Source: Pseudomonadota bacterium
GTDB taxonomy: Bacteria > Bdellovibrionota > FAC87 > UBA2466
Direction: 5' to 3'
Assembly (NCBI GenBank): GCA_009927005.1
Contig: RFNV01000159.1
Coordinates: 5,605 to 69,604 of the forward strand
Length of the DNA: 64,000 nt
The notes under the pieces were generated by a model. That model saw only the letters and a program-made list of their open reading frames with translations, did not search any database and was not told where the DNA came from. Shown here one piece after another: positions 3,494 to 60,983 of this stretch (within the stretch, counting starts at the first letter, position 1; every line of letters begins with the position of its first letter). The translations under genes were made by a program, and so were the position numbers.

Positions 3494-4990
3494 TTATAAT
3501 TCTTCGACGCTGTCTTTCATTGGAGATCGAACATAGACTGGAACATCCCCAATCAAATCCCACTGATTAACTTTATCAAAAGCCTCGGATGGAAGAATTC
3601 CGGCCTTAATATAAAAATCATTTAAGGAAGGTTTATGATCACCAAACATGAGAATAAGGGCATCGGGATCAATCTTAAGAGTATCATCAACAAATTTGGT
3701 TACCTGGGAAATCGTTCGGGTAAGCCTTTTTCTATAATCCGTAACTCCGGAATCGTTGCCCTCTTGGTAAGGACCATGAGTATAAACTGTCGTCAGATAC
3801 AAAAATAGGGGCTTGTCCTTTTTCTCTTTTAAGATCTTAAGCGCAGAATCAAAGAGAATAGAATCATCAGCCCAGCCTGTGACAGGTCCCCGATAGTCCA
3901 TATCCTGCAACCCAAGGAACCGTTCAAACCCAAACTTGGGATTGATAATATTACGATGCCAAAATTTTTTGTCGTGATTGTGAATAGCGATGGTTGAATA
4001 CCCAAGGTTGTTAAGGTATCGGGGAAGCGCATGAGCGCTCTTTCCCATCGACGATGCATATTCTTGGTAAATAACCCCATTGAGGGAGTTGGTGCGCGAG
4101 GGTAACCCAGTCATTACTTCAAATGCTGCATTGGCCGTACTCCCACCATAGACTGGTGAGATCGAACGAAACTCTCTAAATCCTCTCTCTTTCAAAGGAG
4201 AAAACAATTTTGAAAAATGAGTGTCATCATGCCAACAAGACTCGCACAAAATGTAGATGATAGTTTTAGGGCGGTTGAGTTTGGGCAACTCTTTACTAAC
4301 TAATTTTTTAAATTCCTCAAGCTGGCTTTCACTTGGCAAAGGGGGAATTCTTTTTCCGCTGGTGTGCGCCAAATGAAAAGGCAAACCATAGAGTTTAACG
4401 TCCTTTTTCCAGTCAGGAAAAAAATAGAAAATTTTGTTTTTCCACAGGTGGTGCCGAAATATTCGGGCCGCCTCAGATTCGCCCTCAGCTAAACGAGAGA
4501 AAATAACAGCCGGATATAAAATGATGGCCAGAGCTAAAAAGGTAGAGCGTACTTTCAAAGGGTAAGGCGCCTTTGGTCTCTCCATTAGAAAAGTAATAAG
4601 GGATATTACGATTAAAGCGAACAGAAACCAAAGGTGCCAAGCATTGATGTAACGAAATACGATTGAGTAATTGGGTGTTTGGAAAATATCTCCCCATGAA
4701 AGCGCTTCGTTAATAATCGCTACTTTGCTCACATGCGCAACACTGAGAATAAGTTCTAAACTTGCAACCACAATGGTGGAAAAAATGGGCTTAAAAAAAG
4801 CTCGGAAGGCAAAATAACAAAAAAGGACTGGGATGGGAGATATCCAAAAAGCAAGCCAGCGCGGCCCTTCTTCACCATAGAAGTCGAACTTATGGAGATA
4901 CCTCAGGCAAAGAAAATGTATCCCCAATAAGAAAAGGAGAGAGAGGGCCTCAGTGAAAAGATTCAGGCCCCTCGACCGATGAAAGATCAT
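3494..4990 (-). CDS. Sulfatase / alkaline-phosphatase superfamily membrane protein (LTA synthase or phosphoethanolamine/phosphoglycerol transferase-like)
   Basis: About 5 N-terminal TM helices followed by a sulfatase-like periplasmic domain. It ends the rml-like operon. Confidence 0.55.
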   Translation of the reverse strand: MIFHRSRGLNLFTEALSLLFLLGIHFLCLRYLHKFDFYGEEGPRWLAFWISPIPVLFCYFAFRAFFKPIFSTIVVASLELILSVAHVSKVAIINEALSWGDIFQTPNYSIVFRYINAWHLWFLFALIVISLITFLMERPKAPYPLKVRSTFLALAIILYPAVIFSRLAEGESEAARIFRHHLWKNKIFYFFPDWKKDVKLYGLPFHLAHTSGKRIPPLPSESQLEEFKKLVSKELPKLNRPKTIIYILCESCWHDDTHFSKLFSPLKERGFREFRSISPVYGGSTANAAFEVMTGLPSRTNSLNGVIYQEYASSMGKSAHALPRYLNNLGYSTIAIHNHDKKFWHRNIINPKFGFERFLGLQDMDYRGPVTGWADDSILFDSALKILKEKKDKPLFLYLTTVYTHGPYQEGNDSGVTDYRKRLTRTISQVTKFVDDTLKIDPDALILMFGDHKPSLNDFYIKAGILPSEAFDKVNQWDLIGDVPVYVRSPMKDSVEEL

Positions 4991-5037
4991 AGATACAAAA
5001 TTGTACCATTATCGGCAAATTTACTCGCCGCGCAAAT

Positions 5038-5598
5038 TCAGTTGATTTTGGAGCGACGAATAAAGGCAACCACTTCAGCCCAAGTAGGAAAGTTTGACTG
5101 ATTTTGGCGCTCTAAGTCTGGGGGATTCTGCTCAGGTTGTGCGGAGCCCAACAAAATCCCATTAGCTCCTACCCTTACTCCCAAGAGCACATCGCTCCAC
5201 TTGTCCCCTACCGTGTAGCTTCTGCTTAAATCAATAGAATGAGTCTTGGCCAAATCAAGAATCAATTTTGTTTCCGGCTTTCGGCACTTACAAAGATCTT
5301 CGGGTTTATGAAAACAATAGGCAAATTCAAGAATCTCAATTCCCGATTCTTTTAACAATTTGCAAACACGCTCATGAACTGATCGAAATTCACTATCGGT
5401 AATAATTCCTCGCCCCACCCCAGACTGGTTGCTCACAACAAAAAGCAAAAACCCTAAATTTTGAAGTTCTTTTAGAGCTTGGGGAGCCCCTGAAACCCAT
5501 TTCACTTTTTCGGGATCTTTTGGGTAGTGCAGATCCTCAATTAAAGTTCCGTCTCTATCAAGAAAAATGGCTGGTCTTTTCATCATAAGTTTAATCAC
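5038..5598 (-). CDS. gmhB: HAD-IIIA phosphatase, D,D-heptose 1,7-bisphosphate phosphatase (GmhB)-like
   Basis: DRDGTLIED motif I, VVSNQSGVGRG motif, and KCRKP. It overlaps the upstream oxidoreductase gene by 4 bp. Confidence 0.55.
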   Translation of the reverse strand: MIKLMMKRPAIFLDRDGTLIEDLHYPKDPEKVKWVSGAPQALKELQNLGFLLFVVSNQSGVGRGIITDSEFRSVHERVCKLLKESGIEILEFAYCFHKPEDLCKCRKPETKLILDLAKTHSIDLSRSYTVGDKWSDVLLGVRVGANGILLGSAQPEQNPPDLERQNQSNFPTWAEVVAFIRRSKIN

Positions 5599-6677
5599 AT
5601 TATTTTCTCTATCATTCTGCCTACTTCAGCCCCCAAACTCAACGAGGCTGTCAGCCCCGGAGATTCGATTCCCAGCAGATGGAGATATTTCCCATGAGCT
5701 TCCAAAAGAAAATCTGAGTGGGCTTCTCCCCTAACAAACAGCTTTGGTCTCAGCCCTATGAAACCGGGACTGAGATTTTCTGGTTTTAGTTCCGGCAAGT
5801 ACTTCGCCGTTTGATTTAAAAAAACAGGCTTTAACTCGTCCCAATTACAATCCAAATCCGAGCTCCAATCAGCATCGGGGCCCAAGCGGGCATTTCCTTT
5901 CAAATCAGGAGTGAGATGAATTCCCAAGCCATCTTTCTCTGGAACCGGGTAAACCAAAACTTGCAACGGTTCTTGAAAAAAGGACTTCACTCCAAAATAT
6001 CGGCCCCGGCAAAACCGATGCTCATAGACATCGGTATTTAAGACATTATTTGAAATTTTTGCGGCTTTTCCCCCGGCTGAGTTAATCAACACTTTCGCTC
6101 TGATTTGTATAATTTGCTCTCGTTCCCGCACCTCAACCACCCAGGGATCTCGGTCCAACACCCTGATAAATTCGGATCGGTAACTGAGCACGGCCCCCTT
6201 CTCTCTTGCCTTGTTTTCAAGCACTTGAAGATATCGATGAGAATCAAAAACTCCTGATAGCGGAAAGAAAAGAGCTGCAGTGGCTTTAACAAAGGGAAGT
6301 TTTCGCTTTAACCAATCCGAACCTACCCTTTGAAAGGGAACAATCTCATACTCGCAATGGCTAACCAATTCCGCGAGCTTTTCTTCTTCTTTCTGATTAG
6401 TGGCGATCACGTATTTGCCACATTGTCGGTGGGGAATCCGATTTCCCTGGCAGAATCGATAGAGTTCATTTCGGCCTATCTTACAGTGTTCTGTCTTCAA
6501 CGACCGATGTGGATAGTAAATTCCACTATGAATCACTTCACTGTTTCTGGAGGATGCTTCCTGCCCAAACGATGGATTTATTTCGATTAAAATTCGATTC
6601 AAGTGAGGAGGAACTTGATTCAAACAACTAAGGCCAACGGCTCCCCCGCCAATTATCAGAATATCAGTCTCAATCAT
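5595..6677 (-). CDS. FAD-dependent oxidoreductase, L-2-hydroxyglutarate oxidase (LhgO)-like
   Basis: N-terminal ILIIGGGAVGLS dinucleotide fold and an SSRNSEVIHSGIYYP motif as in LhgO. It overlaps the rmlD homologue by 8 bp. Confidence 0.5.
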   Translation of the reverse strand: MIETDILIIGGGAVGLSCLNQVPPHLNRILIEINPSFGQEASSRNSEVIHSGIYYPHRSLKTEHCKIGRNELYRFCQGNRIPHRQCGKYVIATNQKEEEKLAELVSHCEYEIVPFQRVGSDWLKRKLPFVKATAALFFPLSGVFDSHRYLQVLENKAREKGAVLSYRSEFIRVLDRDPWVVEVREREQIIQIRAKVLINSAGGKAAKISNNVLNTDVYEHRFCRGRYFGVKSFFQEPLQVLVYPVPEKDGLGIHLTPDLKGNARLGPDADWSSDLDCNWDELKPVFLNQTAKYLPELKPENLSPGFIGLRPKLFVRGEAHSDFLLEAHGKYLHLLGIESPGLTASLSLGAEVGRMIEKIM

Positions 6678-7530
6678 GTTGTCCTTGATGCAAAAATTCT
6701 TTTAACGAGGTTTTCCAACTTCCTAGACTCTGCACTTTCAATTGCCTTTTCAATTTGTCATTTGCAAGACGACCATTCAAAGGCCTTTGTGCTGGAAGGT
6801 TTACTTCTCGCGTGCGAGCCGGAATCAGTTTTACCGGTAAGTGCCATTCTTCTTTTACAAATTGGTAGACGTCCATCCAAGAGGCAAAATCATCGTAAGC
6901 GAAATGAAATAAACCAGTGGCCTCCTGGACTATCAGAGCCAAAACAGCTTTTACAACATCCCGAGACCAGGTTGGAGCTCCAAACTGATCAACAAATGGA
7001 GAAAATTTTTCTCGGCTTTTCAAGCCGGCAAATCGATTTTTCTTTTTTCCGTAAAGCCACTGAACACGAACAACCAAATGATTGGGATGATTCCGAACTG
7101 CCTTTTCTCCCATCAGCTTAGTCTCTCCGTACCAATTTCTCGGTACTGGTTTTGTGGGATCCATTTCAGTCCACGGTTTATCGCCCTCTCCACTAAAAAC
7201 ATAATCCGTGCTGAAATGAATTAATCGGGCGTTTGCACCGGTAGCGAGTTCTGCTAAATGTTTGGGTCCAACTGCATTGATGAGTCTAGCCCGTTCTCTA
7301 TCCGTTTCTGCTTTGTCGACATCGGTGTAGGCCGCGGCATTTATGATCCACTTTGGTTTTAGGGCCTCAAGCACTTTCGCTATGGCTTGTGGATCCGTGA
7401 TGTCTAAACTCGAGGAATTCTTTTCAACAAAGGAAATTTGATGCTCTTTAAAGGCAGAGGCTATTTCACTGCCCAAAAGTCCATTGGACCCAATCAAAAG
7501 GACCGGACCCGAAATCATTAACCCAGGCAT
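6670..7530 (-). CDS. rmlD: dTDP-4-dehydrorhamnose reductase
   Basis: LLIGSNGLLG Rossmann motif and YGETKLMGE (YxxxK) as in RmlD/RfbD. It overlaps rmlA by 13 bp. Confidence 0.75.
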   Translation of the reverse strand: MPGLMISGPVLLIGSNGLLGSEIASAFKEHQISFVEKNSSSLDITDPQAIAKVLEALKPKWIINAAAYTDVDKAETDRERARLINAVGPKHLAELATGANARLIHFSTDYVFSGEGDKPWTEMDPTKPVPRNWYGETKLMGEKAVRNHPNHLVVRVQWLYGKKKNRFAGLKSREKFSPFVDQFGAPTWSRDVVKAVLALIVQEATGLFHFAYDDFASWMDVYQFVKEEWHLPVKLIPARTREVNLPAQRPLNGRLANDKLKRQLKVQSLGSWKTSLKEFLHQGQHD

Positions 7531-8237
7531 TCTTCAAACATGAGACGATTGGCAAGATAAAGAGAGTTAAAGGTGCCGGCATCCGTCCATGCTCCCTTAA
7601 AGAAATCACAAGTGAGTGTTCCTTGCTGGACATAGTAATTATTAACATCGGTGATCTCCAGCTCTCCTCGACCACTTGGTTTGAGAGTTTTGATGACATC
7701 AAAAACCGTCGAATCATAGAAGTAGATACCGGTTACAGCGAAATTTGACTTAGGGTTTTTTGGTTTCTCCTCAATACTTAAAATTTTATTTCCCTGAAGC
7801 TCCGCTACTCCATATCTACCCGGATCTGGAACTTCTTTAAGTATTACCCTTGCACCCTTTTTTTGCTCCTGATAAGCCGTCACAAACCCATTCAAATCAT
7901 CGGAGAAAATATTGTCTCCCAAAATCGTCACGAATTTCGAATCGTGAATAAAGTCCCTCACTAATCCAAGTGCTTGAGCAATTCCGCCAGCTTCATCTTG
8001 TACTTTATACCCGAAGCGAACCCCATAATCTTTTCCCGAACCAAGCAAGTTAACCACTGCGCCCATGTGCTCGACTCCCGTCACGATCACAATGTCAGTA
8101 ATTCCTGCTTTGATCAGTTTATCAATCGGGTGAAGAATCATGGGTTTACGGCCCACAGGAAGAAGATGTTTGTTCGTCACTTTAGTTAAAGGATAAAGCC
8201 GAGAGCCGGTACCGCCTGCAAGAATTACCCCTTTCAT
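7518..8237 (-). CDS. rmlA: Sugar-1-phosphate nucleotidyltransferase, short-form glucose-1-phosphate thymidylyltransferase-like
   Basis: MKGVILAGGTGSRLYPLT N-terminus. It is 239 aa, lacking the long-form C-terminal tail. It overlaps rmlB by 4 bp. Confidence 0.7.
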   Translation of the reverse strand: MKGVILAGGTGSRLYPLTKVTNKHLLPVGRKPMILHPIDKLIKAGITDIVIVTGVEHMGAVVNLLGSGKDYGVRFGYKVQDEAGGIAQALGLVRDFIHDSKFVTILGDNIFSDDLNGFVTAYQEQKKGARVILKEVPDPGRYGVAELQGNKILSIEEKPKNPKSNFAVTGIYFYDSTVFDVIKTLKPSGRGELEITDVNNYYVQQGTLTCDFFKGAWTDAGTFNSLYLANRLMFEECLG

Positions 8238-50592: not shown

Positions 50593-51390
50593 ATGATGGA
50601 ACAACTAGCCAAAGCTTGGCAAGATGTCTTAAATAAAAGGGGCTTTGAGTACGGCCTTCCTTCCGACGTCTCCACCCATGGTTTTGCAATTGATAATTTG
50701 ATTACAACGCTCCACTATTTCATGGCTTTGCTGTTTGTAGGCTGGGGAATTTACCTAGTTTATTGCTTGGTCAGATTTAGAGAGCGCGAAGGCCATACAG
50801 CAGATGTCGCGCCGCAACACTTTTCCCTTCCCAAGTATCTTGAGATTGGAGTTGTTATTTTTGAAGCTTGTTTATTGGTGTTTTTCTCCTATCCCGTCTG
50901 GGCCAAGCTAAAAACTGACTTTCCAGATAGAGAAACCTCTTTAGTAGTTCGTATCACCGCTGAGCAATTTGCGTGGAATATTCATTATCCCGGAAAAGAC
51001 GGGAAATTTGGAAAAACAAACATAGATCTCATCGACGGAACAAATCCCGTTGGCCTAGATAGAGAAGACCCTAATGGAAAAGATGACATCGTGTCTATTA
51101 ACCAATTCAATGTTCCCGTTGGAAAACCTGTGATTGTAGAATTGGGAGCAAAAGATGTGATTCACGGATTCTTCCTTCCCAATGCTCGAGTAAAACATGA
51201 TGCAATTCCTGGAATGGTCTTCCCCCTTTGGTTTGAAACGAAAGAAACAGGAAAGTTTGAAATCGCCTGTGCTCAGCTCTGCGGCGTAGGACACTACCGA
51301 ATGAAGGGATATTTTAATGTCCTTACCCAAGAAGAGTACGACAACTGGATTTTAGAAGAAGAAGAAGCTTTGAAAGAAGAAGGAGCCTAA
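50593..51390 (+). CDS. coxB: Cytochrome c oxidase subunit II
   Basis: Two N-terminal TM helices and a CuA site (CAQLCGVGHYRM). Confidence 0.85.
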   Translation: MMEQLAKAWQDVLNKRGFEYGLPSDVSTHGFAIDNLITTLHYFMALLFVGWGIYLVYCLVRFREREGHTADVAPQHFSLPKYLEIGVVIFEACLLVFFSYPVWAKLKTDFPDRETSLVVRITAEQFAWNIHYPGKDGKFGKTNIDLIDGTNPVGLDREDPNGKDDIVSINQFNVPVGKPVIVELGAKDVIHGFFLPNARVKHDAIPGMVFPLWFETKETGKFEIACAQLCGVGHYRMKGYFNVLTQEEYDNWILEEEEALKEEGA

Positions 51391-51393
51391 TCA

Positions 51394-53097
51394 ATGTCTC
51401 ACCACGAAATGCCTTTTTGGAAAAAGTATATTTTTTCTACTGACCATAAAGTGATTGGCCTTCAATACGGAATCACGGCCACTTTCTTTCTGCTTTTTGG
51501 ATTCTTTTTGATGATTCTCATGCGTTGGCAACTTGCGTATCCCGGAGTTGAAATTCCCCTAATCGGAAAAGCACTCACTGAAACAGGAGCGCTGACTCCC
51601 GAACTGTATAACGCCCTCGGAGCAATGCATGGAACAATCATGATCTTCCTAGGGGTAGTGCCTATGGGGGTTGGGGCCTTCGGCAACTATTTGGTTCCAC
51701 TTCAGGTAGGTGCTTGCGACATGGCCTTCCCCAAACTCAACATGATGAGCTACTGGGTTTATTTTGTAGGCGGAGTCATCATGATGATGAGCTTCCTGAT
51801 GCCAGGAGGAGCAGCTGCTTCTGGATGGACTTCCTATCCGCCCCTTTCTGTTATTTCAAATAATGCTCAGACGGTTTGGTTGCTCTCAATGGTGTTCTTG
51901 ATCACTTCCTCTTTGTTAGGTTCTGTGAACACTATCGTGACTGCCATTCAACTCAGAGCTAAAGGCCTTAATTTCATGCGATGGCCAATCCATGTTTGGG
52001 CTCAGGTTACAACTGCTTTTCTTCTGTTATTAGCTTTCCCTCCTCTCGAAGGAGCAGCGATCTTGCAACTTGCTGACCGAGTTTTCGGCAGCAGCTTTTT
52101 TCTTCCCAGTGGCTTAGTTGTATCCGGAGAAAAATTAGGCGTTGCCGGCGGTGGAAACCCTCTTTTATGGCAACATCTTTTTTGGTTTTTGGCCCACCCA
52201 GAAGTGTATGTGTTGATTCTTCCAGCAGTGGGAGTGGTTTGTGAAATTGTCACTACCAACTGCCGAAAGCCCTTTTATGGCTATAAGACCATGGTGTACT
52301 CAATTCTATTCTTAGGATTTATGTCCTTTGTGGTTTGGGCTCACCACATGTTCATGACCGGAATGGGAGTGACTTTGAGCTCGTTCTTCCAAGCAACGAC
52401 GATGATTATCTCCATTCCCTCAGTGATTATTTTGACCACTATTCTTCTCACCTTGTGGGGAGCTTCCATAAGGTTTACGGTTCCAATGCTATTTGCGATG
52501 GCGTTTTTACCGATGTTCGCGATTGGTGGATTAACGGGTCTTCCGTTGGGATTAACCGCTTCGGATATTCATCTGCACGATACTTATTATGTGATTGGAC
52601 ACTTCCACTACGTCGTGGCACCAGGAACTCTATTCGCCCTGATGGGTGGTGTTTATTACTGGTATCCAAAATTCTCCGGACGGCACATGAACGAATTCCT
52701 CGGAAAGCTTCATTTCTGGGTTTCGTTTGTAGCGATTAACTTCGTGTTTATGCCGATGTTCTTGATGGGCTCCAAAGGGGTCTCCCGAAGAATGTACGAC
52801 CAAACTCAATATTCTTACGGGGCTTCTACTCAAAGCTGGAACGTCGTCATGTCGACAGCTGCCTTTGTTCTCCTACTGGCTCAAATTCCTTTTATTTGGA
52901 ATATGTTCACAGCTTGGAAGACGGGTAAAAAGGTTCAAAATGACAATCCTTGGGAGGCAACTACTCTTGAGTGGGCTGCAAGTTCACCTCCCCCTCATGA
53001 AAACTTCCCTACCCCAGTAGAAGTTTACAGAAATCCGTACTCTTATTCGGCTACAACCCGAAAAGTGTTACCTCAATTTATTCCCCAGGAGGGCTAA
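51394..53097 (+). CDS. ctaD: Cytochrome c oxidase subunit I
   Basis: 12 TM helices with heme-copper oxidase His ligands (WFFGHPEVY-like WFLAHPEVYVLILP, HHMF). Confidence 0.9.
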   Translation: MSHHEMPFWKKYIFSTDHKVIGLQYGITATFFLLFGFFLMILMRWQLAYPGVEIPLIGKALTETGALTPELYNALGAMHGTIMIFLGVVPMGVGAFGNYLVPLQVGACDMAFPKLNMMSYWVYFVGGVIMMMSFLMPGGAAASGWTSYPPLSVISNNAQTVWLLSMVFLITSSLLGSVNTIVTAIQLRAKGLNFMRWPIHVWAQVTTAFLLLLAFPPLEGAAILQLADRVFGSSFFLPSGLVVSGEKLGVAGGGNPLLWQHLFWFLAHPEVYVLILPAVGVVCEIVTTNCRKPFYGYKTMVYSILFLGFMSFVVWAHHMFMTGMGVTLSSFFQATTMIISIPSVIILTTILLTLWGASIRFTVPMLFAMAFLPMFAIGGLTGLPLGLTASDIHLHDTYYVIGHFHYVVAPGTLFALMGGVYYWYPKFSGRHMNEFLGKLHFWVSFVAINFVFMPMFLMGSKGVSRRMYDQTQYSYGASTQSWNVVMSTAAFVLLLAQIPFIWNMFTAWKTGKKVQNDNPWEATTLEWAASSPPPHENFPTPVEVYRNPYSYSATTRKVLPQFIPQEG

Positions 53098-53694
53098 ATG
53101 GCAGTTCATATTCCTTATATTGATAAGCCAAATCCAGTAACTGGAGTAACAAATGCAAAGCTGGGCATTTGGCTCTTTTTGGCATCGGAAGTGATGCTTT
53201 TCGGAGCTTTATTTTCAGCTCTGATCACCCTTCGTTTAGGAGTCAGCGATTGGCCGCACGGATATGATGTTTTAAATGTCCCGCTCGCTACCGTTAATAC
53301 CGTTGTCTTGATTTTTTCATCGGTGACTGTGGTGATGGCCTGGGCTGCTCTGAAGATGCATAATTTAAAGCAATTTAAGACTTATATGAGTCTGACTTTG
53401 TTGATGTCTTTTATCTTCTTGGGGATCAAAGCAGTTGAATATGGGAAAAAGTTTAGCCACGGCATTAGCCCTGCAACGAGTAACTTCTACGCGATTTACT
53501 TTGTCATCACAGGACTCCATGGTCTTCATATTCTTGGGGGTATCATCGTCAATGCATACCTCTTAGGACCAGGTAGTCATATGTGGAAATCCGAACCTGA
53601 GCGTTTTACAGGCCGTATCGAATGTGCTGGTCTTTATTGGCACTTTGTGGATTTGGTTTGGATTTTCTTATTTCCTATTCTTTATCTTCTGTAA
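53098..53694 (+). CDS. ctaE: Cytochrome c oxidase subunit III
   Basis: 5 TM helices and the subunit III family sequence. It starts 1 nt after the ctaD stop. Confidence 0.8.
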   Translation: MAVHIPYIDKPNPVTGVTNAKLGIWLFLASEVMLFGALFSALITLRLGVSDWPHGYDVLNVPLATVNTVVLIFSSVTVVMAWAALKMHNLKQFKTYMSLTLLMSFIFLGIKAVEYGKKFSHGISPATSNFYAIYFVITGLHGLHILGGIIVNAYLLGPGSHMWKSEPERFTGRIECAGLYWHFVDLVWIFLFPILYLL

Positions 53695-53706
53695 GGAGAA
53701 GCTACC

Positions 53707-54027
53707 ATGGCATCAGAACATATGTCCGTTGAGGAAGTGAAGAAGCACACTCGAGTTTATTGGGTGATTTTTGGCTGTTTATTATTGCTGACTGCAGTGA
53801 CCGTTGGGATTTCTTATATCCACCTGCCTTTCACCTTTGCTGTCATTTTGGCGCTGGTGGTTGCATCAACCAAAGCATCTTTAGTGGCTCTTTATTTCAT
53901 GCATTTGATTTCTGAAAAGGCAGCTATTTATTTAACCTTAGCACTTACCGCAGTTTTGTTTGCTGTATTAATCGTAGTTCCTTGGATGATCCCCATGGAT
54001 GCGATGAGGAGTTGGCTTGTCTCTTAA
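53707..54027 (+). CDS. Cytochrome c oxidase subunit IV (caa3-type small subunit)
   Basis: 106 aa with 3 TM helices, in operon position after subunit III. Confidence 0.5.
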   Translation: MASEHMSVEEVKKHTRVYWVIFGCLLLLTAVTVGISYIHLPFTFAVILALVVASTKASLVALYFMHLISEKAAIYLTLALTAVLFAVLIVVPWMIPMDAMRSWLVS

Positions 54028-54427
54028 GGTTGTTCATCTCTTTTTGATCCTCTGCTCTATTGCTCTGTCGGGATTTTTTGGGGTCTGGTCTCTTCAAAAC
54101 TATAGTTGGGATACGGGTCCATTACTGGTTTCGTTGGGATACTTGTCCCTCTCTGGAACTGGTGGGTTAGTTTTCTATCTCTTTTACTTTTTGAAGAAGA
54201 CTAAGGGCTTTGGACTTCTCGGCTTTTTATTCCTGGCCTCCCTTTTACACCCTCAGTCTGTTTGGGCGTGTGCTGTTTGCCAATTCGGCACTCCCGATTC
54301 TCCTCTTGTGAGAGCTATCAGAGAGGGAATCTGGGTTCTGTTATTTTTACTCGTTCCGGTTCTCGCGGGCTTTCTAGGCCTTTTTATTTTCTGGGCTAAA
54401 AGAGATAAAAAGATCTCCTCACTGTAA
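54017..54427 (+). CDS. Hypothetical 4-TM membrane protein with a CAVCQFG motif
   Basis: Four hydrophobic helices. It overlaps the subunit IV stop by 11 nt, and its 3' end overlaps the convergent gene by 9 nt. Confidence 0.3.
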   Translation: MSLKVVHLFLILCSIALSGFFGVWSLQNYSWDTGPLLVSLGYLSLSGTGGLVFYLFYFLKKTKGFGLLGFLFLASLLHPQSVWACAVCQFGTPDSPLVRAIREGIWVLLFLLVPVLAGFLGLFIFWAKRDKKISSL

Positions 54428-55555
54428 TGTCACTTTAATCAGCTGACGATTCTCACTCTCATAAGATCCTTTTAACTTCGCAAGAACCAATAATGTTTTT
54501 CCATCATCAGAAAGCGCCAAGTGATGTTGGTGAATGGGCCCAGTGATTTGATCTCGAAGGGGCCGAAGGATTACTGGCTCTCCATTTTCAAGATTTCGGG
54601 GATAAATGAGGCTTAACCCTTCCTCCTCGCTCCAAGCCGCTAGCACCGCTTGGCGAGGATTAAGAACCATAGGAACACTTTTTCCAAAATTGTAGTAACG
54701 GCAGCCATAAACCCCATCGTCCCAAAGGAGATTTTTCTCAGGATGATCGGTCCTGACAACAAACATATTCTGGTTACCGGCCATGAGTTCTGGGAACTGG
54801 TAAACTTCTTTCACATTTCCCGGAATGAGAGTGGAATACTGACCAGATTGGTAAAGCTTACAAACTGGGATTCCCGCAAGCTCACCCTCGATTTGGATAT
54901 TAAAGTAAGTTAGCCGAGTGCACTGATTCTCTCTTTTGACTCGGTAAAGAAAGACATTGGGATAAGTATGGCCCTCACCTAGGTGAAATACTTCTCCCAC
55001 ACCGGAGTAGAGGTTACAGATATGTGGCTTGATCCCTTTTTGACTAAAAGAATAGACCTCGATCTGTTGCTGGTGAGGCCTGACAATTGAGGAAGTAACA
55101 CTAAAAAGAGAATCCCGCCCAAAAAACCGGTGCCAGTAAAGATGTTTAACTCGCTTTTTATGTGACCACTTCTGCCAGCGTGGCGGATTGGTAGCAGTAT
55201 CGAGAGTGATCGGGGAACCCACGAGGGTTATGTACCGTTCACCGGGATCTTTAACAGGGGAAAGTGAAGCATTACTGGAGCCTAAAAGAACACTTTTTCC
55301 ACTTCTTAGATCGAGTCGATAAATTTTTCCAAATTGGTTTCGATAAACAATCTGATTTTTCTTTTCCCAAAAGACAAATTCATGCACTGGCCCTCTCAAA
55401 TCAAAATTCGTAACCCCAAGGTTTTGAATTTTTGTAATGTCTGTCAGCGGGTTCGGTCCATCCCCACCGAAACATTTGATAGAGCCAATATCGGATGCGT
55501 TTATTTGCGCAGTCACACAGAGCCAAAGGCCTAGAATTAAATTCATTTTTCTCAT
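54419..55555 (-). CDS. Secreted Cys-containing hypothetical protein, paralogue A
   Basis: Signal peptide MRKMNLILGLWLCVTAQINA. It shares motifs with 56646..57722 (LGEGHTYPNVFLYRVK versus IGEGHLVPNLLLYSEK). It overlaps the upstream regulator by 4 bp. Confidence 0.45.
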   Translation of the reverse strand: MRKMNLILGLWLCVTAQINASDIGSIKCFGGDGPNPLTDITKIQNLGVTNFDLRGPVHEFVFWEKKNQIVYRNQFGKIYRLDLRSGKSVLLGSSNASLSPVKDPGERYITLVGSPITLDTATNPPRWQKWSHKKRVKHLYWHRFFGRDSLFSVTSSIVRPHQQQIEVYSFSQKGIKPHICNLYSGVGEVFHLGEGHTYPNVFLYRVKRENQCTRLTYFNIQIEGELAGIPVCKLYQSGQYSTLIPGNVKEVYQFPELMAGNQNMFVVRTDHPEKNLLWDDGVYGCRYYNFGKSVPMVLNPRQAVLAAWSEEEGLSLIYPRNLENGEPVILRPLRDQITGPIHQHHLALSDDGKTLLVLAKLKGSYESENRQLIKVTLQ

Positions 55556-56625
55556 ACTTCTCCCTCTCGAATCGTAACTTTGGGAACTAGACGATATCCG
55601 CCCTCTTCAAAAGAAATGGGATCAACCTCAAAATCCAGTTCTAACAATATTTTTCTGAGGCAGTGGATCTGATACTGCAATTTGCTATCATCCGATGCCG
55701 GTTCATAATCTTTTTTAAATACCTTTTTAGCCATCTGGGATTTGTCTATCCATTCTTTCTTGGTAAACAGCTCGAATATTTTTGCGGGAAGGGTTTGATA
55801 GCTGAGCTCAATCTTTTTTTCATTACAAAAAACCGTCCACCCTTTTATCCCGTGTTCACAAAACAGTTCTGGTGCAATTGGTTTCGTATTCAACTTCTCT
55901 TCAAGTGCCGAGAGCTGAGCCTTTAATGTTTTGAAGGGGCTTTTTTCTACAATCGCCCGGGTCTCAGCTAATAGCTGAGTAGCTTGCTCCTTATCGTCAC
56001 GAAGGATGTAAAGGCCCCCTAAAATGACTTTTCCAGAAAAATACGCATACCAATCTCGAATGGGGTCCAATTCTTTAAAGAGTTTTGCCATTTTCTCTTC
56101 TGCTAAATCTAACTTCCCCTCATCTCGTAAAATTTTAATTCGCCACAATTCCAAACTCAGCTGAATAGGTCTATCCTGTGAATCCTCAATCGAGTCGATG
56201 ATTCTTCGACAAGCATCCACATTATCTCCCTCACAATCGTAGCAATAAGCTAGAAGCATCTTGGCCTTGGTATGTAAGTAGCTAGATTCAGGATTTGAAA
56301 TAACTTTTGTTAGGAGTTCTTTTGCAGACTTTAGATTTCTTTCAGCTCCCAGGATCGAAACTTCGGCTAATTGATAATAAAGCTCATCGGTCTGCCATTT
56401 CGAAGAGAGATTCTCTATCTGATTCAAGTAAAAGTTGAGCTCTCGTTCTTTTCCCAATTCTAGAAGGCATCGAACAAAGTAACTTAAATAAAGCGCGTGC
56501 TCGGGTTGAGGTGAAAAAGGAAGGCGGTCAAAAAATCGACGAAAAACTGCATAAGCTTCATGGAGCTTCCATGAAAAGAATAGGTCCTTCGCCTTATCTA
56601 GGTCCTTCTTCTGTTTCTCAAGCAT
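55552..56625 (-). CDS. TPR-like transcriptional regulator with C-terminal OmpR/PhoB-type winged helix, paralogue A'
   Basis: The C-terminus LPAKIFELFTKK…SDDSKLQYQIHCLRKILLELDFEVDPISFEEGGYRLVP matches a trans_reg_C wHTH. A helical TPR-like region of about 230 aa lies N-terminal, and there is no TM helix. Confidence 0.55.
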   Translation of the reverse strand: MLEKQKKDLDKAKDLFFSWKLHEAYAVFRRFFDRLPFSPQPEHALYLSYFVRCLLELGKERELNFYLNQIENLSSKWQTDELYYQLAEVSILGAERNLKSAKELLTKVISNPESSYLHTKAKMLLAYCYDCEGDNVDACRRIIDSIEDSQDRPIQLSLELWRIKILRDEGKLDLAEEKMAKLFKELDPIRDWYAYFSGKVILGGLYILRDDKEQATQLLAETRAIVEKSPFKTLKAQLSALEEKLNTKPIAPELFCEHGIKGWTVFCNEKKIELSYQTLPAKIFELFTKKEWIDKSQMAKKVFKKDYEPASDDSKLQYQIHCLRKILLELDFEVDPISFEEGGYRLVPKVTIREGEV

Positions 56626-56645: not shown

Positions 56646-57722
56646 CTATCTGTTTAATCCCTTTAAGCTAACTGTGTGCAGTGCGCGGCCTCCCCACTTA
56701 TCTCTTCGTTCTCTCGTACTGATAAAAAGCTGCTCTCCCTCTGAATCGACCCAAATTTGATTTCCTTCCAGAAATCCTCTGTCTACCGATAAATCCAGAG
56801 TGAAATAACGACCGGTCAGTAAGGAGTAGACGCCAACTCCTTTTTGGCGATTGATGTTTATCACCACTGAACTTTTAGTATTTGGTATGTAGGAGCGGCC
56901 GACAGGTAAAATTCCAATTGAAAATGCCCCGGGCGTTCCAAAGTATAGATTGGTAGTTTCATGATCGGTGAAGACAACTACCTCTCTCCCCTCAAAAGCC
57001 CAATTTACTGAAGTGACATTTCCCTTAAAGTATTCAGGCTCCCTCGATTGAGCTTCGATCTGGCATTTACCATTTCGTGCCTTGAGGTTGAGCGTATAGA
57101 TAGTTAACTCAGTGTCTCTATCCATATGTTTTTCGCTGTATAGGAGGAGGTTTGGCACCAAGTGACCCTCTCCAATCCTTAGGTTTTTGGGATTGTTGGC
57201 TGGGTAAAAATCACAAGCATTGTGACGAATCTGATTCTTGTCCTGATTGTAGATGAAATAGGAAATCCTCCAAGCCTCACCGTTAAGCTTTTCCAGTTTT
57301 TTTAGCAAATACAGATCGTTTTTGTCCCACAGGAGAAACTGGCTGGACCCAGGCAGGCCTATCTCCTGGCCCTTATTTTTACCCACAACCCTAACTACTT
57401 TTTTTAGATCTGAGGAGAGAACCGTTTTTCCTCCAGCTCCTGAAACTGGGAAAAGCTCATTGATAAACCCACCATACTGTTGCTCCTCACCGCTGTTAAA
57501 ATCGTAAACACGCAACTTCAAGTTTGAATCGATATAAGCAAGCTTGTCTGTTCCTTCCAGAACCGAGTAGGAAGAAATGGTTTCCTGCAAGGGAATGGTT
57601 ACTTTTCGAGGGGCTGGGATCGGAGCAAACGGCGTCGGACCATCACTGCCAATCATTTCAAAAGCCATCAACTCTTTTGATAATCCCACCAAAAGGACTA
57701 CTAAGTAAAAAATCGCCCTCAT
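56646..57722 (-). CDS. Secreted Cys-containing hypothetical protein, paralogue B
   Basis: Signal peptide from the internal Met (MRAIFYLVVLLVGLS). Paralogous to 54419..55555. It forms a 4-bp ATGA overlap with the upstream regulator. Confidence 0.45.
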   Translation of the reverse strand: MRAIFYLVVLLVGLSKELMAFEMIGSDGPTPFAPIPAPRKVTIPLQETISSYSVLEGTDKLAYIDSNLKLRVYDFNSGEEQQYGGFINELFPVSGAGGKTVLSSDLKKVVRVVGKNKGQEIGLPGSSQFLLWDKNDLYLLKKLEKLNGEAWRISYFIYNQDKNQIRHNACDFYPANNPKNLRIGEGHLVPNLLLYSEKHMDRDTELTIYTLNLKARNGKCQIEAQSREPEYFKGNVTSVNWAFEGREVVVFTDHETTNLYFGTPGAFSIGILPVGRSYIPNTKSSVVININRQKGVGVYSLLTGRYFTLDLSVDRGFLEGNQIWVDSEGEQLFISTRERRDKWGGRALHTVSLKGLNR

Positions 57723-58816
57723 AAAACATCCTCCCCGACTTCGGACACTTCTGGAACCCATCGGTATCCAAATGATTCCTTGGTTACAAGTTTTTGGGAG
57801 AATCCCAATTTAAGAAGCTGCTTTTTTAATAAGTGAAGCTGGCCATAGATCAATTTATCGTCCTTTTTGGCCCGATAATTTCTACGATACAACCGTTGAA
57901 TGATTTCCTGTTTAGGAAGAACTTTTTCGCGAATCAATGACAGAAGGAGTTTCTGCCACGGCTTGTCTCCATTAAGCTGGAGAATCTTACCCTCGTATTT
58001 TAAGATGCTCGAATTTCGAGTTCGTTCCCAGATTAAAGAAACCGAACGATCATGACCTTTGATTTGATCAGCTAAGTGGTCGATCTGCCGTTTTATCGTT
58101 CTTAAAGGATAGCGATCACAATAAGCTCTCACTTCCTTGATAATGGAAAGTAATCGATCGAATCGCTCTTGGCGAAGGTATACACCACCCAAAATTACTT
58201 GCCCCGAGAGATAAGCATGCCAATGGAAGTGGGCTTTTACAGTAGCTAGAAAAGTTCCGAGAGATCTTTCTGCGTCTTCAATTCGACCTGAATCTCTCAT
58301 TATTTTTGCTTTCCATACGGAAACCAAATCGAGCAAGTAGGGATCCAATCCATCTAAATTAATTGAGGAAATAATCGAATCACACACTTTCCAGTCTCTG
58401 GAAATAATGTCGTAGCAAGTGGAAAGACCCATTTTGGTTCGGGCCAACAAGTTGACGTCGTGACTTTTAAATAAAATTCTTTCAAAGGTTTCTCGAGCGC
58501 GATCGAGATCTGCCGTTTCTTGGGTCAAATAAGACAGCCCCACTTGATAATCAAGTTCGGGCGTTCGCTTTTTTTCTGGAATCACCGATAGCTTGTCACG
58601 GTAACTTTTTAAATCCTCATCTTTACCCAATTCATAAAGGGTCCGTATGAACATGGAAAAAAATTCTACGAGTTCGCAACTTTCCTCAACACTCATCGAA
58701 TCAAATGTCTCTTTAAAGAGGGGGTAAGCCTCCTCGAGTCGAAGCTCGTAATACAAGGAGCGAGCCTTCATTAAATGGGTAGGAATTGTTGATTTCATTT
58801 TGGGGAAAAGTATCAC
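57719..58816 (-). CDS. TPR-like transcriptional regulator with C-terminal OmpR/PhoB-type winged helix, paralogue B'
   Basis: The C-terminus KDDKLIYGQLHLLKKQLLKLGFSQKLVTKESFGYRWVP is wHTH. The shared WHAYLSGQVILGGVYL motif matches WYAYFSGKVILGGLYI in A'. Confidence 0.55.
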   Translation of the reverse strand: MILFPKMKSTIPTHLMKARSLYYELRLEEAYPLFKETFDSMSVEESCELVEFFSMFIRTLYELGKDEDLKSYRDKLSVIPEKKRTPELDYQVGLSYLTQETADLDRARETFERILFKSHDVNLLARTKMGLSTCYDIISRDWKVCDSIISSINLDGLDPYLLDLVSVWKAKIMRDSGRIEDAERSLGTFLATVKAHFHWHAYLSGQVILGGVYLRQERFDRLLSIIKEVRAYCDRYPLRTIKRQIDHLADQIKGHDRSVSLIWERTRNSSILKYEGKILQLNGDKPWQKLLLSLIREKVLPKQEIIQRLYRRNYRAKKDDKLIYGQLHLLKKQLLKLGFSQKLVTKESFGYRWVPEVSEVGEDVL

Positions 58817-58959
58817 ATTCTCAGGGCCCGTGTAAAAAAGGTTTGGGGTAGCGCGTCGCGACAGAAATCAGCGTTAGAATTGACTCGGCCGGCCTAGATT
58901 GAGCTTCGCAGCAAGTGAGATCATAAGAAGTAGTTTCCTCATTCTCTCACTCTGTAATC

Positions 58960-59595
58960 ATGAACATACTTTCACACCGAGGTCTCTGGAAAGAGCCTCA
59001 AGAGCAAAATCAACTGTCTTCCTTTGCAACGAGTCAGACTGAAGGTTTTGGAACTGAAACTGACCTGCGTTCGTATTCCGGTAAACTCTACCTGTCTCAC
59101 GATCCGTTGAGTTCCTCCCGAGACGCCCTCAAATTTGAAGATCTTCTGACTCTTTGGGCAGATCGCCCCGAATTGCCTCTTTTTCTCAATATTAAAGAAG
59201 ATGGTCTCCTGCCGTATTTGAAACCTTATCATTCTCTCTTGGAAAGACTCAGAGTCGTTTTTTTTGATATGAGCGTTCCCCAACTGGTTCAGTTTTCAAA
59301 AGTTTTCCCGCGGAAGATGTTAGCAACTCGTTTCTCAGAATATGAGCGAGAACCCTCCGCTCAAGAACTTTGTAGTTGGCTTTGGGTGGATAGCTTTCAT
59401 TCCGATCCCGAACTCAGTTCTCTCAGGCCCTTTGCGATCGAAAAAAAAATGTCGCTCGCAATTGTTTCGCCTGATCTCCATGGACGAGATCCCAAGCCGA
59501 TTTGGAAGAGGCTCCGAACTGAACCGATTATCCCCAGTGAAGCTCTTTATTTTTGTACCGATATCCCGCAGGAATTTTCAAAGGAATCATTATGA
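58960..59595 (+). CDS. Glycerophosphodiester phosphodiesterase (GDPD)-family protein
   Basis: LSHRGLW…GFGTETDLR is an N-terminal GDPD catalytic His/Glu/Asp pattern. Its stop overlaps the start of the next gene (ATGA). Confidence 0.5.
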   Translation: MNILSHRGLWKEPQEQNQLSSFATSQTEGFGTETDLRSYSGKLYLSHDPLSSSRDALKFEDLLTLWADRPELPLFLNIKEDGLLPYLKPYHSLLERLRVVFFDMSVPQLVQFSKVFPRKMLATRFSEYEREPSAQELCSWLWVDSFHSDPELSSLRPFAIEKKMSLAIVSPDLHGRDPKPIWKRLRTEPIIPSEALYFCTDIPQEFSKESL

Positions 59596-60983
59596 TCAAA
59601 GCAGTCATTTTTGACTTAGATGGCGTTTTAGTCGATGCAGTTACTTTGCATTATCAAGCTTTCAGTCGCGCCATAAACCTTTTTGGCTTTGAAGTGCCCC
59701 CTGCCGTTCATGGTTTTAACTACAATGGTTTACCAACCACGGTAAAACTCGAAATGCTCTCTCAATTTTCAGCGCTTCCCAGAGGCTTGCATTCCTTCAT
59801 CAATGAAATGAAACAAGTTTACACTCAGGAACTCTTAAACCAGCGATTAAAGCCCTCTCTCCTTCAAATTAATTTACTAAAAACACTTCGTGAGCGAGGT
59901 ATGAAATTAGCAGTAGCTTCAAACTGCTCGCGAGGCACCGTCGATCTCGTTTTGGAAAAGCTTCAGATTCGACCCTTTTTTGATGTCATTCTTTCTAAGG
60001 ATGATGTCAGTAAATCTAAGCCCGATCCAGAGATTTATTTAAAATGCTTTAAAACCCTGGGAGTAAATAGCGACGAAGTTTTAATCATAGAAGATTCTAA
60101 ACCTGGGATCATAGCGGCTCAAAAGGCGACATCCAATGTCGCGATCGTTAAGAGTCCTGCTGAGGTTAATCTCTCTTTTATCAACTCTCAAATTGCGAAA
60201 TTTCGAGATCAGAATTGTCTAGATACACGAACCGTTGAGATTGTGATTCCCATGGCAGGATTAGGTTCACGGTTTGCAGATGTTGGGTATGTTGATCCGA
60301 AGCCCCTCATCAAAGTACATGGCAAGCCGATGATTCAGTGGGTAATTGAAAATTTAAGTTCTCAGAACTATCGGACCCATTTTAACTTTATTGTTAATCG
60401 AACCCATTTCGAATCTTTTGATCTAGAAAATCGACTTTCCGAACTTGCACCGGGTTGCCAGATTATTTCGGTGCCCCACAAGACGGAAGGAGCTGCGTGC
60501 ACTGTTCTGTTAGCGCTAGATCGAATCGCCCTCGATAGACCCCTCATTATTGCTAATTCAGATCAGTTCGTAGAGAGCTCCTTCGAGGATTTTCTAAAAT
60601 CAGCTTTGGAATCAGATAGAGATGGCTTGATCATGACCTTTCCCGCGAAAGAGACAAAGTGGAGTTATGCGCGGTTGGATGATAAGGATTTGGTAGTTGA
60701 AGTAGCTGAGAAAAAGCCAATTAGCTCTCACGCAACGGTAGGAATCTACTATTTTAAAACGGCAGAACTTTTCCAAAGAGCTAGTTATTCGATGATTCGC
60801 TCGGACGTTAGAACCAATAATGAGTTTTACGTATGCCCTGTATACAATGACCTTATTCAGGCAGGCGGCAAAGTAGGAATTTTTCCCATTCCGGCAGAAG
60901 CCATGCATGGGCTGGGGACTCCAGAAGATTTGGCTATTTTCCTCGAACGTTCAGTGAAGCGCCCTCTTCCTCTGGCCGCGTAA
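59592..60983 (+). CDS. Bifunctional HAD-IA hydrolase (beta-phosphoglucomutase-like) / sugar-phosphate nucleotidyltransferase fusion
   Basis: N-terminal IKAVIFDLDGVLVDAV plus the KSKPDP HAD motifs. The C-terminal IVIPMAGLGSRF…KPLIKVHGKPMIQW has an NTP-transferase signature. An AAGGAA SD precedes the ATG at 59592. Confidence 0.55.
   Translation: MIKAVIFDLDGVLVDAVTLHYQAFSRAINLFGFEVPPAVHGFNYNGLPTTVKLEMLSQFSALPRGLHSFINEMKQVYTQELLNQRLKPSLLQINLLKTLRERGMKLAVASNCSRGTVDLVLEKLQIRPFFDVILSKDDVSKSKPDPEIYLKCFKTLGVNSDEVLIIEDSKPGIIAAQKATSNVAIVKSPAEVNLSFINSQIAKFRDQNCLDTRTVEIVIPMAGLGSRFADVGYVDPKPLIKVHGKPMIQWVIENLSSQNYRTHFNFIVNRTHFESFDLENRLSELAPGCQIISVPHKTEGAACTVLLALDRIALDRPLIIANSDQFVESSFEDFLKSALESDRDGLIMTFPAKETKWSYARLDDKDLVVEVAEKKPISSHATVGIYYFKTAELFQRASYSMIRSDVRTNNEFYVCPVYNDLIQAGGKVGIFPIPAEAMHGLGTPEDLAIFLERSVKRPLPLAA

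Follow-up and report, generated by a model that had tools for sequence, protein, structure and literature searches.

The 64,000-nucleotide stretch of contig RFNV01000159.1 analyzed here (the window; assembly GCA_009927005.1, Bdellovibrionota) encodes two paralogous regulators, regA and regB, which combine an N-terminal tetratricopeptide repeat (TPR) domain with a winged helix-turn-helix (wHTH) of the OmpR/PhoB type at the C-terminus. Directly downstream of each regulator gene lies one that encodes a signal-peptide protein, parA and parB, respectively. Judged by full-length homology between the sequences, the two regulators are a divergent paralogous subfamily of the Bd3743-like TPR-wHTH superfamily of the Bdellovibrionota, of which Bd3743 from Bdellovibrio bacteriovorus is the member known best. 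Co-encoding of these regulators with a secreted protein is near-universal across the lineage, and the type of partner differs between subfamilies. The explanation favored here, with fair confidence, is that regA and regB are cytoplasmic one-component regulators, devoid of a receiver (REC) domain, which use the TPR domain as input and the OmpR/PhoB domain as output and control at least their own operon.

Domain architecture of regA and regB

regA is a single exact open reading frame (ORF) of 357 amino acids on the minus strand (positions 55552-56625) and encodes a cytoplasmic TPR-wHTH regulator. Its AlphaFold2 model (predicted local distance difference test, pLDDT, 88.4) shows 13 helices across residues 3-246; the secondary structure of the model, Foldseek and profile matches define a TPR-like domain at residues 1-246 (55888-56625, minus strand). 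The OmpR/PhoB-type winged helix spans residues 253-353 (55567-55869, minus strand) and is modeled, at a block-mean pLDDT of about 78-93, with strands at 253-275, helices at 279-289, 295-302 and 309-328, and then residues 337-346 as a hairpin. The C-terminal fold of the model is that of an OmpR/PhoB effector domain: an N-terminal sheet, three helices, the third of which is the recognition helix of this fold, and a hairpin wing. A Foldseek search with the whole regA model retrieved TPR proteins only (APC6/Cut9, NprR, Rap and MalT domain III). The paralog regB, also on the minus strand (57719-58798; 359 amino acids from the ATG at 58798), carries its wHTH at roughly 57743-58045 and is 28% identical to regA across 344 residues (E 2e-43).

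Family membership is established through relatives. Taken singly, neither regA nor regB reaches the Pfam gathering cut-off of 26.2 bits for Trans_reg_C (PF00486), regA matches TPR_19 below the cut-off (E 7e-4), an NCBIfam scan of the two proteins yields only noise, and a phmmer search of regA against the PDB finds only chance matches to NMDA receptors. In an alignment of 37 members of the regA/regB subfamily (A1), Trans_reg_C is matched in 32 of the 37 relatives, with a best E of 1.4e-6, and TPR_19 in 30. The A1 profile matches the TPR of kinesin light chain at positions 137-257 and, within positions 243-357, the DNA-binding domains of BaeR, ToxR, SaeR and AdeR. This evidence from homologs assigns the family to PF00486 and therefore confirms the domain composition despite the weak single-sequence scans; Pfam misses or under-scores the wHTH of the window proteins because the subfamily is so diverged.

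The GGYRL motif of regA and the GYRW motif of regB lie in the C-terminal hairpin, the wing; here, all 37 sequences have Y344, and 34 of them have R345. At least 34 of the 37 conserve each of nine wHTH residues (K295, Y307, D312, D313, H321, R324, K325, Y344 and R345); H321, R324, K325, Y344 and R345, which belong to helix 3 and the hairpin, are retained throughout the subfamily.

Neither regulator has a membrane segment (maximal 19-residue hydropathy 0.59 and 0.89). A BTAD domain is detected neither in regA or regB at E≤10 nor in the list of the 25 families commonest in their relatives. There is no Response_reg match in the two proteins or in the families listed for their relatives, and the N-terminus is an all-helical TPR; a match to NB-ARC is likewise lacking in regA and regB.

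These results bear out the layout proposed in a preliminary description of the locus, which placed a helical domain at the N-terminus and an OmpR-type wHTH at the C-terminus of both paralogs: the AlphaFold2 model, the profiles of A1 and of the sister-family alignment A4 (see below) and the Pfam matches of relatives all agree, and the matches of the A1 profile to DNA-binding domains fall within positions 243-357. Its helical repeat of about 230 residues ahead of the wHTH corresponds to the 13 TPR-like helices of regA, and the terminal GGYRL/GYRW motif belongs to the wHTH hairpin, as it had suggested. The Pfam scan proposed there gave a divided answer: Trans_reg_C and TPR_19 appear in most relatives, while regA and regB themselves stay below the cut-off and the BTAD domain is undetected.

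The four genes are arranged as regB-parB-regA-parA and are separated by very little DNA. The parB ATG overlaps the regB stop codon as ATGA (junction TTATGAGG), and the parA ATG overlaps the regA stop codon in the same way (junction GTATGAGA); the gap between parB and regA is only 20 bp, and the set is therefore read as a single operon. parA (54419-55555, minus strand) encodes 378 amino acids with a signal peptide, folded into a putative 7-bladed β-propeller, and parB (56646-57722, minus strand) encodes a paralog of 358 amino acids, also with a signal peptide. parA and parB are distant paralogs (20% identity, E 2e-9). The start of parB is most likely at 57722 rather than 57761, the former yielding the ATGA overlap. 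The ORF listing starts regB at a GTG (58816; 57719-58816), which is probably wrong: the alignment of the family and the gene lengths of orthologs make the ATG at 58798 the likely true start. Both cassettes probably arose by tandem duplication of a whole regulator-partner unit and later diverged to 28% (regulators) and 20% (partners) identity.

Secreted partners and the Bd3743-like sister family

parA represents a family of narrow extent and matches no Pfam or NCBIfam entry; a hidden Markov model (HMM) of the partner family matches parB at E 1.7e-113. The structure of parA, predicted with the alignment A3 (pLDDT 85, predicted TM-score 0.83), consists of a signal-peptide helix followed by an all-β structure, for which Foldseek finds 7-bladed propellers of the WD40/YncE type at E of about 1e-7 to 1e-6. 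Members of the parA/parB family share a near-invariant C-x-GGDGPNP-L motif directly past the predicted cleavage site of the signal peptide (residues ~28-37 of parA), and the propeller partners have conserved cysteines (C28, C180, C232 and C285). As sequence features, the cysteines and the motif that follows the signal peptide fit an exported protein.

Linkage of regulator and propeller is tight. Among non-duplicate loci, the propeller gene lies immediately downstream of 35 of the 38 regulator genes of the subfamily; the other three comprise one regulator with a frameshifted partner (locus L004) and two at contig ends. The partner start codon, ATG or GTG, overlaps the regulator stop codon by 4 nucleotides in 27 of the 35. 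The tandem double cassette is retained in loci whose regulators are only 36% and 51% identical to regA. At L004 (7082-8195), on a long-read-style contig, the partner is broken into several short ORFs, reflecting either a frameshift assembly error or a pseudogene.

The regA/regB subfamily comprises 45 clusters. When 1.84 billion representatives were scanned in full by HMMER with A1, 75 proteins scored E≤1e-30, and a second tier of proteins of 360-410 amino acids matched over both domains. All ten of the second-tier proteins tested exceed the Pfam cut-off for Trans_reg_C at their C-termini and have canonical TPR matches. An alignment of 43 such sister-family proteins (A4), which includes no sequence from the window, was compared with A1 by hhalign and aligned over 347 columns at a probability of 100% (E 2.9e-38). 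Conversely, the A4 HMM recognizes regA (E 4.7e-40) and regB (E 4.3e-31) in the window and no other ORF of 100 amino acids or more. The A4 profile matches the DNA-binding domains of WalR, PhoB, YycF and VicR at E of 4e-9 to 5e-8, and RpaB is also among the best response-regulator matches. regA and regB thus share with the superfamily a length of ~360-400 amino acids, the order TPR then Trans_reg_C and homology over the full length.

With A4 as query, at least 637 clusters were retrieved from a database of 5.8 billion proteins; among the matches listed (120), lengths range from 356 to 408 amino acids and all have precomputed TPR and PF00486 annotations. The sources are Bdellovibrionales, Pseudobdellovibrionaceae and Oligoflexia metagenome-assembled genomes (MAGs) plus one MAG labeled Alphaproteobacteria, so that all named source organisms but one are Bdellovibrionota. 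Cultured carriers are represented by RefSeq proteins of 367 amino acids from B. bacteriovorus (XGC80702.1), B. reynosensis (WP_243536668.1) and Bdellovibrio sp. 22V. In Pfam, the protein of B. bacteriovorus reaches 54.5 bits for TPR_12 and 48 bits for Trans_reg_C; it is 23% identical to regA by BLASTP (E 2e-8). Species, length and architecture, rather than sequence, suggest that this protein (P0352) is Bd3743, a protein of 367 amino acids noted to have a C-terminal OmpR/PhoB-type domain and a TPR domain in place of REC (PMC12034629, 2025). Bd3743 was analyzed among proteins termed attack-phase expressed and required for predation (PMC12034629).

For the regA/regB subfamily, scanning a single genome of each GTDB species recovered 28 loci, all from MAGs assigned to Bdellovibrio, Bdellovibrionaceae, Pseudobdellovibrionaceae or Bdellovibrionota, or bearing broad labels (Deltaproteobacteria, Pseudomonadota, "bacterium"). 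Bdellovibrio sp. ZAP7 comes closest (84% identity), and a MAG labeled "Proteobacteria bacterium" carries the exact regA protein, annotated there as hypothetical. NCBIfam 20.0 holds no curated full-length model for the TPR-wHTH family.

The suggestion of a distinct regulator family in the preliminary description is supported, in that the regulators belong to a distinct family at full length, but its presentation of the architecture as unusual is not: this architecture is found in at least 637 clusters and in cultured Bdellovibrio and has been described in print for Bd3743. A catalogued, common family was named in that description as grounds for giving up the idea; the proposed survey, run for its Bdellovibrionota part, shows the architecture to be catalogued and common there, which realizes these grounds in part.

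Genes of the main, Bd3743-like branch sit after lon, within a clpP-clpX-lon context in three metagenome loci, and the gene that comes next, which is unannotated, encodes about 170-200 amino acids. Sequence of at least 300 nucleotides downstream of the regulator is available for 69 of the 80 metagenome loci of this branch. In 65 of the 69, an ORF on the same strand starts between -3 and +74 nucleotides downstream, and in 51 the product is a signal-peptide protein of 150-240 amino acids that carries the motif PWPWG.E.PFPW..IQG.W (the PFPW protein). The arrangement holds in cultured B. bacteriovorus (CP168971.1; L117, 7114-7689), where the PFPW gene lies 10 nucleotides downstream of the regulator. 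The motif stands directly after the signal peptide, e.g., in the protein encoded at 6197-6712 of locus L033 and in others among loci L033-L116; no Pfam match is recorded for the called PFPW genes examined. Between the GGDGPNP motif of the propellers and the small-partner motif, at its GGD.P.P start, the resemblance is only loose. Homology between the PFPW protein and the propeller was considered and rejected: hhalign gave 37%, confined to the signal peptide.

The Bd3743-type proteins (XGC80702.1, WP_243536668.1) and the window regulators are therefore alike in length class, in the order of TPR and Trans_reg_C, in phylum and in having a signal-peptide protein gene directly downstream. They differ in partner, a β-propeller of ~360-380 amino acids in the window and a non-homologous PFPW protein of ~170-200 amino acids in the Bd3743 type, and in context, a tandem double cassette adjoining cox genes as opposed to a position after clpP-clpX-lon. 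Because they adjoin the cox operon and precede propellers, rather than following lon and preceding a PFPW protein, the window genes are placed in a subfamily separate from the main branch.

Some lineages lost the wHTH yet retained the partner. In the A1 scan, ~16 representatives of 240-290 amino acids match only profile positions 1 to ~250, and the four of these that were inspected end in short tails unrelated to the wHTH. Locus L029 has two tandem cassettes of a TPR-only gene plus partner (TPR-only genes at 4887-5756 and 6924-7736) and L030 has one (4968-5771); tblastn searches for a wHTH remnant in both loci found none. Complete TPR-only members of ~260-290 amino acids include P0101, P0102, P0104 and P0110.

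Input, output and competing explanations

With the OmpR/PhoB response regulators (PhoB, WalR/YycF, OmpR and BaeR), regA and regB share a C-terminal winged helix of the same topology, the ..LRK.. motif in helix 3 and the GYR motif in the hairpin. Unlike response regulators, regA and regB have neither a receiver domain nor its phospho-acceptor Asp, and their N-terminus is a TPR domain. A C-terminal position is normal for the wHTH in the OmpR/PhoB family; it is the receiver domain that the TPR takes the place of. With the receiver and the phospho-acceptor Asp absent and a TPR module present instead, the input is presumably protein or peptide binding, not phosphorylation. In the mechanism proposed here, a TPR domain of about 245 residues would have taken the place of the OmpR/PhoB receiver domain, with the winged helix remaining C-terminal; the TPR domain would serve as an input module that binds a peptide or protein; ligand binding would control oligomerization and DNA binding by the wHTH; and the regulator, acting at least on its own operon, would set how much of the co-encoded β-propeller, whether periplasmic or secreted, is produced.

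DNA upstream of regB offers candidate sites for such control. A σ70-like promoter candidate of the four-gene operon (58809-58836, minus strand; TTTACA-16-TG-GATACT) does not exceed shuffle expectation in a consensus scan by itself; its extended -10 element, GTGTGATAC, is conserved across five orthologous loci. Further upstream, a non-coding block of 34 bp (58892-58925, minus strand; TATGATCNCAYTTGYYGC...GCYCAATCTAGGC) is near-invariant in five aligned loci in which the proteins are merely 50% identical; its counterparts lie at L002 3693-3720, L005 2701-2728, L006 985-1012 and L008 2683-2710. The pattern is present only in syntenic loci, has no Rfam match and has no clear repeat structure.

A number of observations weigh against the proposal that regA and regB are autoregulatory one-component regulators. 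In single-protein Pfam scans, regA has no Trans_reg_C match at E≤10, and regB matches at residues 292-352 with 13.3 bits, half of the cut-off. Conservation is lower in the wHTH than in the TPR domain (mean pairwise identity of 38% vs 46%). OmpR/PhoB winged helices usually bind direct repeats, and a search for operators upstream revealed no convincing direct or inverted repeats, including direct repeats of the OmpR-family type. The 34-bp block could be an operator or, equally, part of the divergent gene for 211 amino acids, as its promoter, and is not assignable to regB in preference to that gene. The TPR-only genes keep their partners, and the TPR-partner link is therefore independent of DNA binding. 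Lastly, experimental work on any member goes no further than an AlphaFold-Multimer prediction for Bd3743 (PMC12034629).

Retention of the partner by TPR-only genes leads to a different view of the pair, in which the TPR domain acts as a secretion-coupled adaptor or chaperone: its main task would be to bind the co-translated, unexported partner, or the N-terminal region thereof, and the wHTH, dispensable in some lineages, would only report occupancy back to transcription. Chaperone feedback of this kind operates in type III secretion, in the IpgC/MxiE and SicA/InvF pairs, which are analogs and not homologs of the proteins in question. The strict adjacency of regulator and partner, coupled by ATGA in 27 of the 35 pairs, the two L029 cassettes that keep a partner and no wHTH remnant, the pairing of the sister family with a different secreted protein (PFPW, at 51 of the 69 loci and also in the cultured species B. 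bacteriovorus) and the duplication of regulator and partner as one unit would all be consistent with this scenario. However, Sec substrates normally need no dedicated TPR chaperones, a plain autoregulated operon predicts adjacency and co-duplication equally well, and the wHTH residues are conserved in most members. An adaptor function is considered unlikely, if still deserving of serious consideration. A broader proposal, that TPR-wHTH regulators and downstream secreted proteins are obligate two-component-like pairs across the Bdellovibrionota, including the Bd3743 locus, in which the TPR domain reads the export or occupancy state of the partner, or a signal that stems from the partner, and relays it to transcription, is speculative, and we regard it as improbable. 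If true, it would constitute a secretion-coupled or exported-signal circuit undescribed in Gram-negative bacteria, of which the window would hold a duplicated and diverged propeller form.

A signal that returns from outside the cell is the basis of Gram-positive RNPP-type systems, e.g., PlcR-PapR, NprR-NprX and Rap-Phr, and RNPP proteins (PlcR, NprR, Rap, PrgX) resemble regA and regB in joining a TPR sensor to a DNA-binding domain and in having a gene for an exported product next to them. Cell-cell signaling of this type with reversed domain order, in which the TPR domain would sense the secreted protein, or a peptide released from it, after this had re-entered the cell or signaled back, would account for the succession of regulator gene and exported-protein gene throughout the superfamily, for the likeness of the TPR fold to NprR and Rap in Foldseek and of the A4 profile to RapJ and RapF, and for the short conserved motif that both kinds of partner carry just past their signal peptides (GGDGPxP for the propeller, the PFPW motif for the small protein). 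Yet the partners are folded proteins of 170-380 amino acids and not pro-peptides of 20-50, the TPR similarity is generic (Foldseek E of about 2e-3 to 1e-2, TM of about 0.3-0.5), and no peptide importer or processing protease adjoins the genes at the loci inspected. RNPP proteins also bear an N-terminal XRE-type HTH, not an OmpR-type wHTH, pair with small pro-peptides and occur in Firmicutes; regA and regB fall outside the group, and an RNPP-like circuit is very unlikely. MalT likewise has TPR-like repeats ahead of a C-terminal HTH and resembles regA and regB at the level of the TPR fold, but it has a STAND ATPase and a LuxR-type HTH; with neither RNPP proteins nor MalT is there homology past generic TPR.

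The preliminary description had instead seen an inverted SARP/CadC-like architecture; this reading, of a circularly permuted or inverted SARP- or CadC-type regulator with BTAD or TPR moved ahead of the wHTH, we find scarcely credible. TPR and OmpR-type wHTH do co-occur in large SARPs; SARP/AfsR/EmbR proteins, like regA and regB, combine this wHTH with helical-repeat domains, CadC, ToxR and HilA, like them, have an OmpR-type wHTH and no receiver, and HilA also has a TPR. Members of the sister family give weak, sub-threshold NCBIfam matches to the distal TPR of AfsR and to the DNA-binding domains of CadC and HilA. However, SARPs have an N-terminal wHTH followed by BTAD, an order reversed in regA and regB; the wHTH of CadC, ToxR and HilA is N-terminal, and a membrane anchor and a periplasmic sensor are found in CadC and ToxR, whereas regA and regB are soluble proteins that end in the wHTH. 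At 30.8 bits, for a cut-off of 1430, the match to AfsR is located in the distal TPR region, outside the SARP core. The label is unfit because neither BTAD, NB-ARC nor a membrane segment is detected and because the DNA-binding domains of the sister family match response regulators better than CadC or HilA, with no match to a SARP DNA-binding domain. regA and regB are thus classed with neither SARPs nor CadC-type proteins, nor, in the lack of REC, with two-component response regulators.

Genomic context and significance

The four-gene operon converges with a cox operon on one side and diverges from a gene encoding 211 amino acids on the other. On the cox side, ORFs resembling COX2, COX1, COX3 and COX4 occupy 50593-54427 on the plus strand, and the end of the cox operon overlaps the end of parA by 9 nucleotides. 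The other flank (58960-60983) holds the gene for 211 amino acids and then a HAD/nucleotidyl-transferase gene. The flanking synteny of the cassette is retained in L002, where the regulator is 51% identical. Membership in a defense system was considered and rejected, PADLOC having given a single weak TPR-type match.

The TPR-wHTH architecture is not new: it is present in cultured Bdellovibrio, named by RefSeq and noted in print for Bd3743. What the survey adds is a lineage-wide rule of secreted partners, the existence of wHTH-less derivatives that keep the partner, and a divergent subfamily that standard domain scans miss. The rule that joins a regulator to a secreted partner and the wHTH-less derivatives are the parts that deserve follow-up. 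If the link between regulator and partner is functional, it would provide a two-gene handle on an uncharacterized, phylum-specific regulatory family of predatory bacteria.

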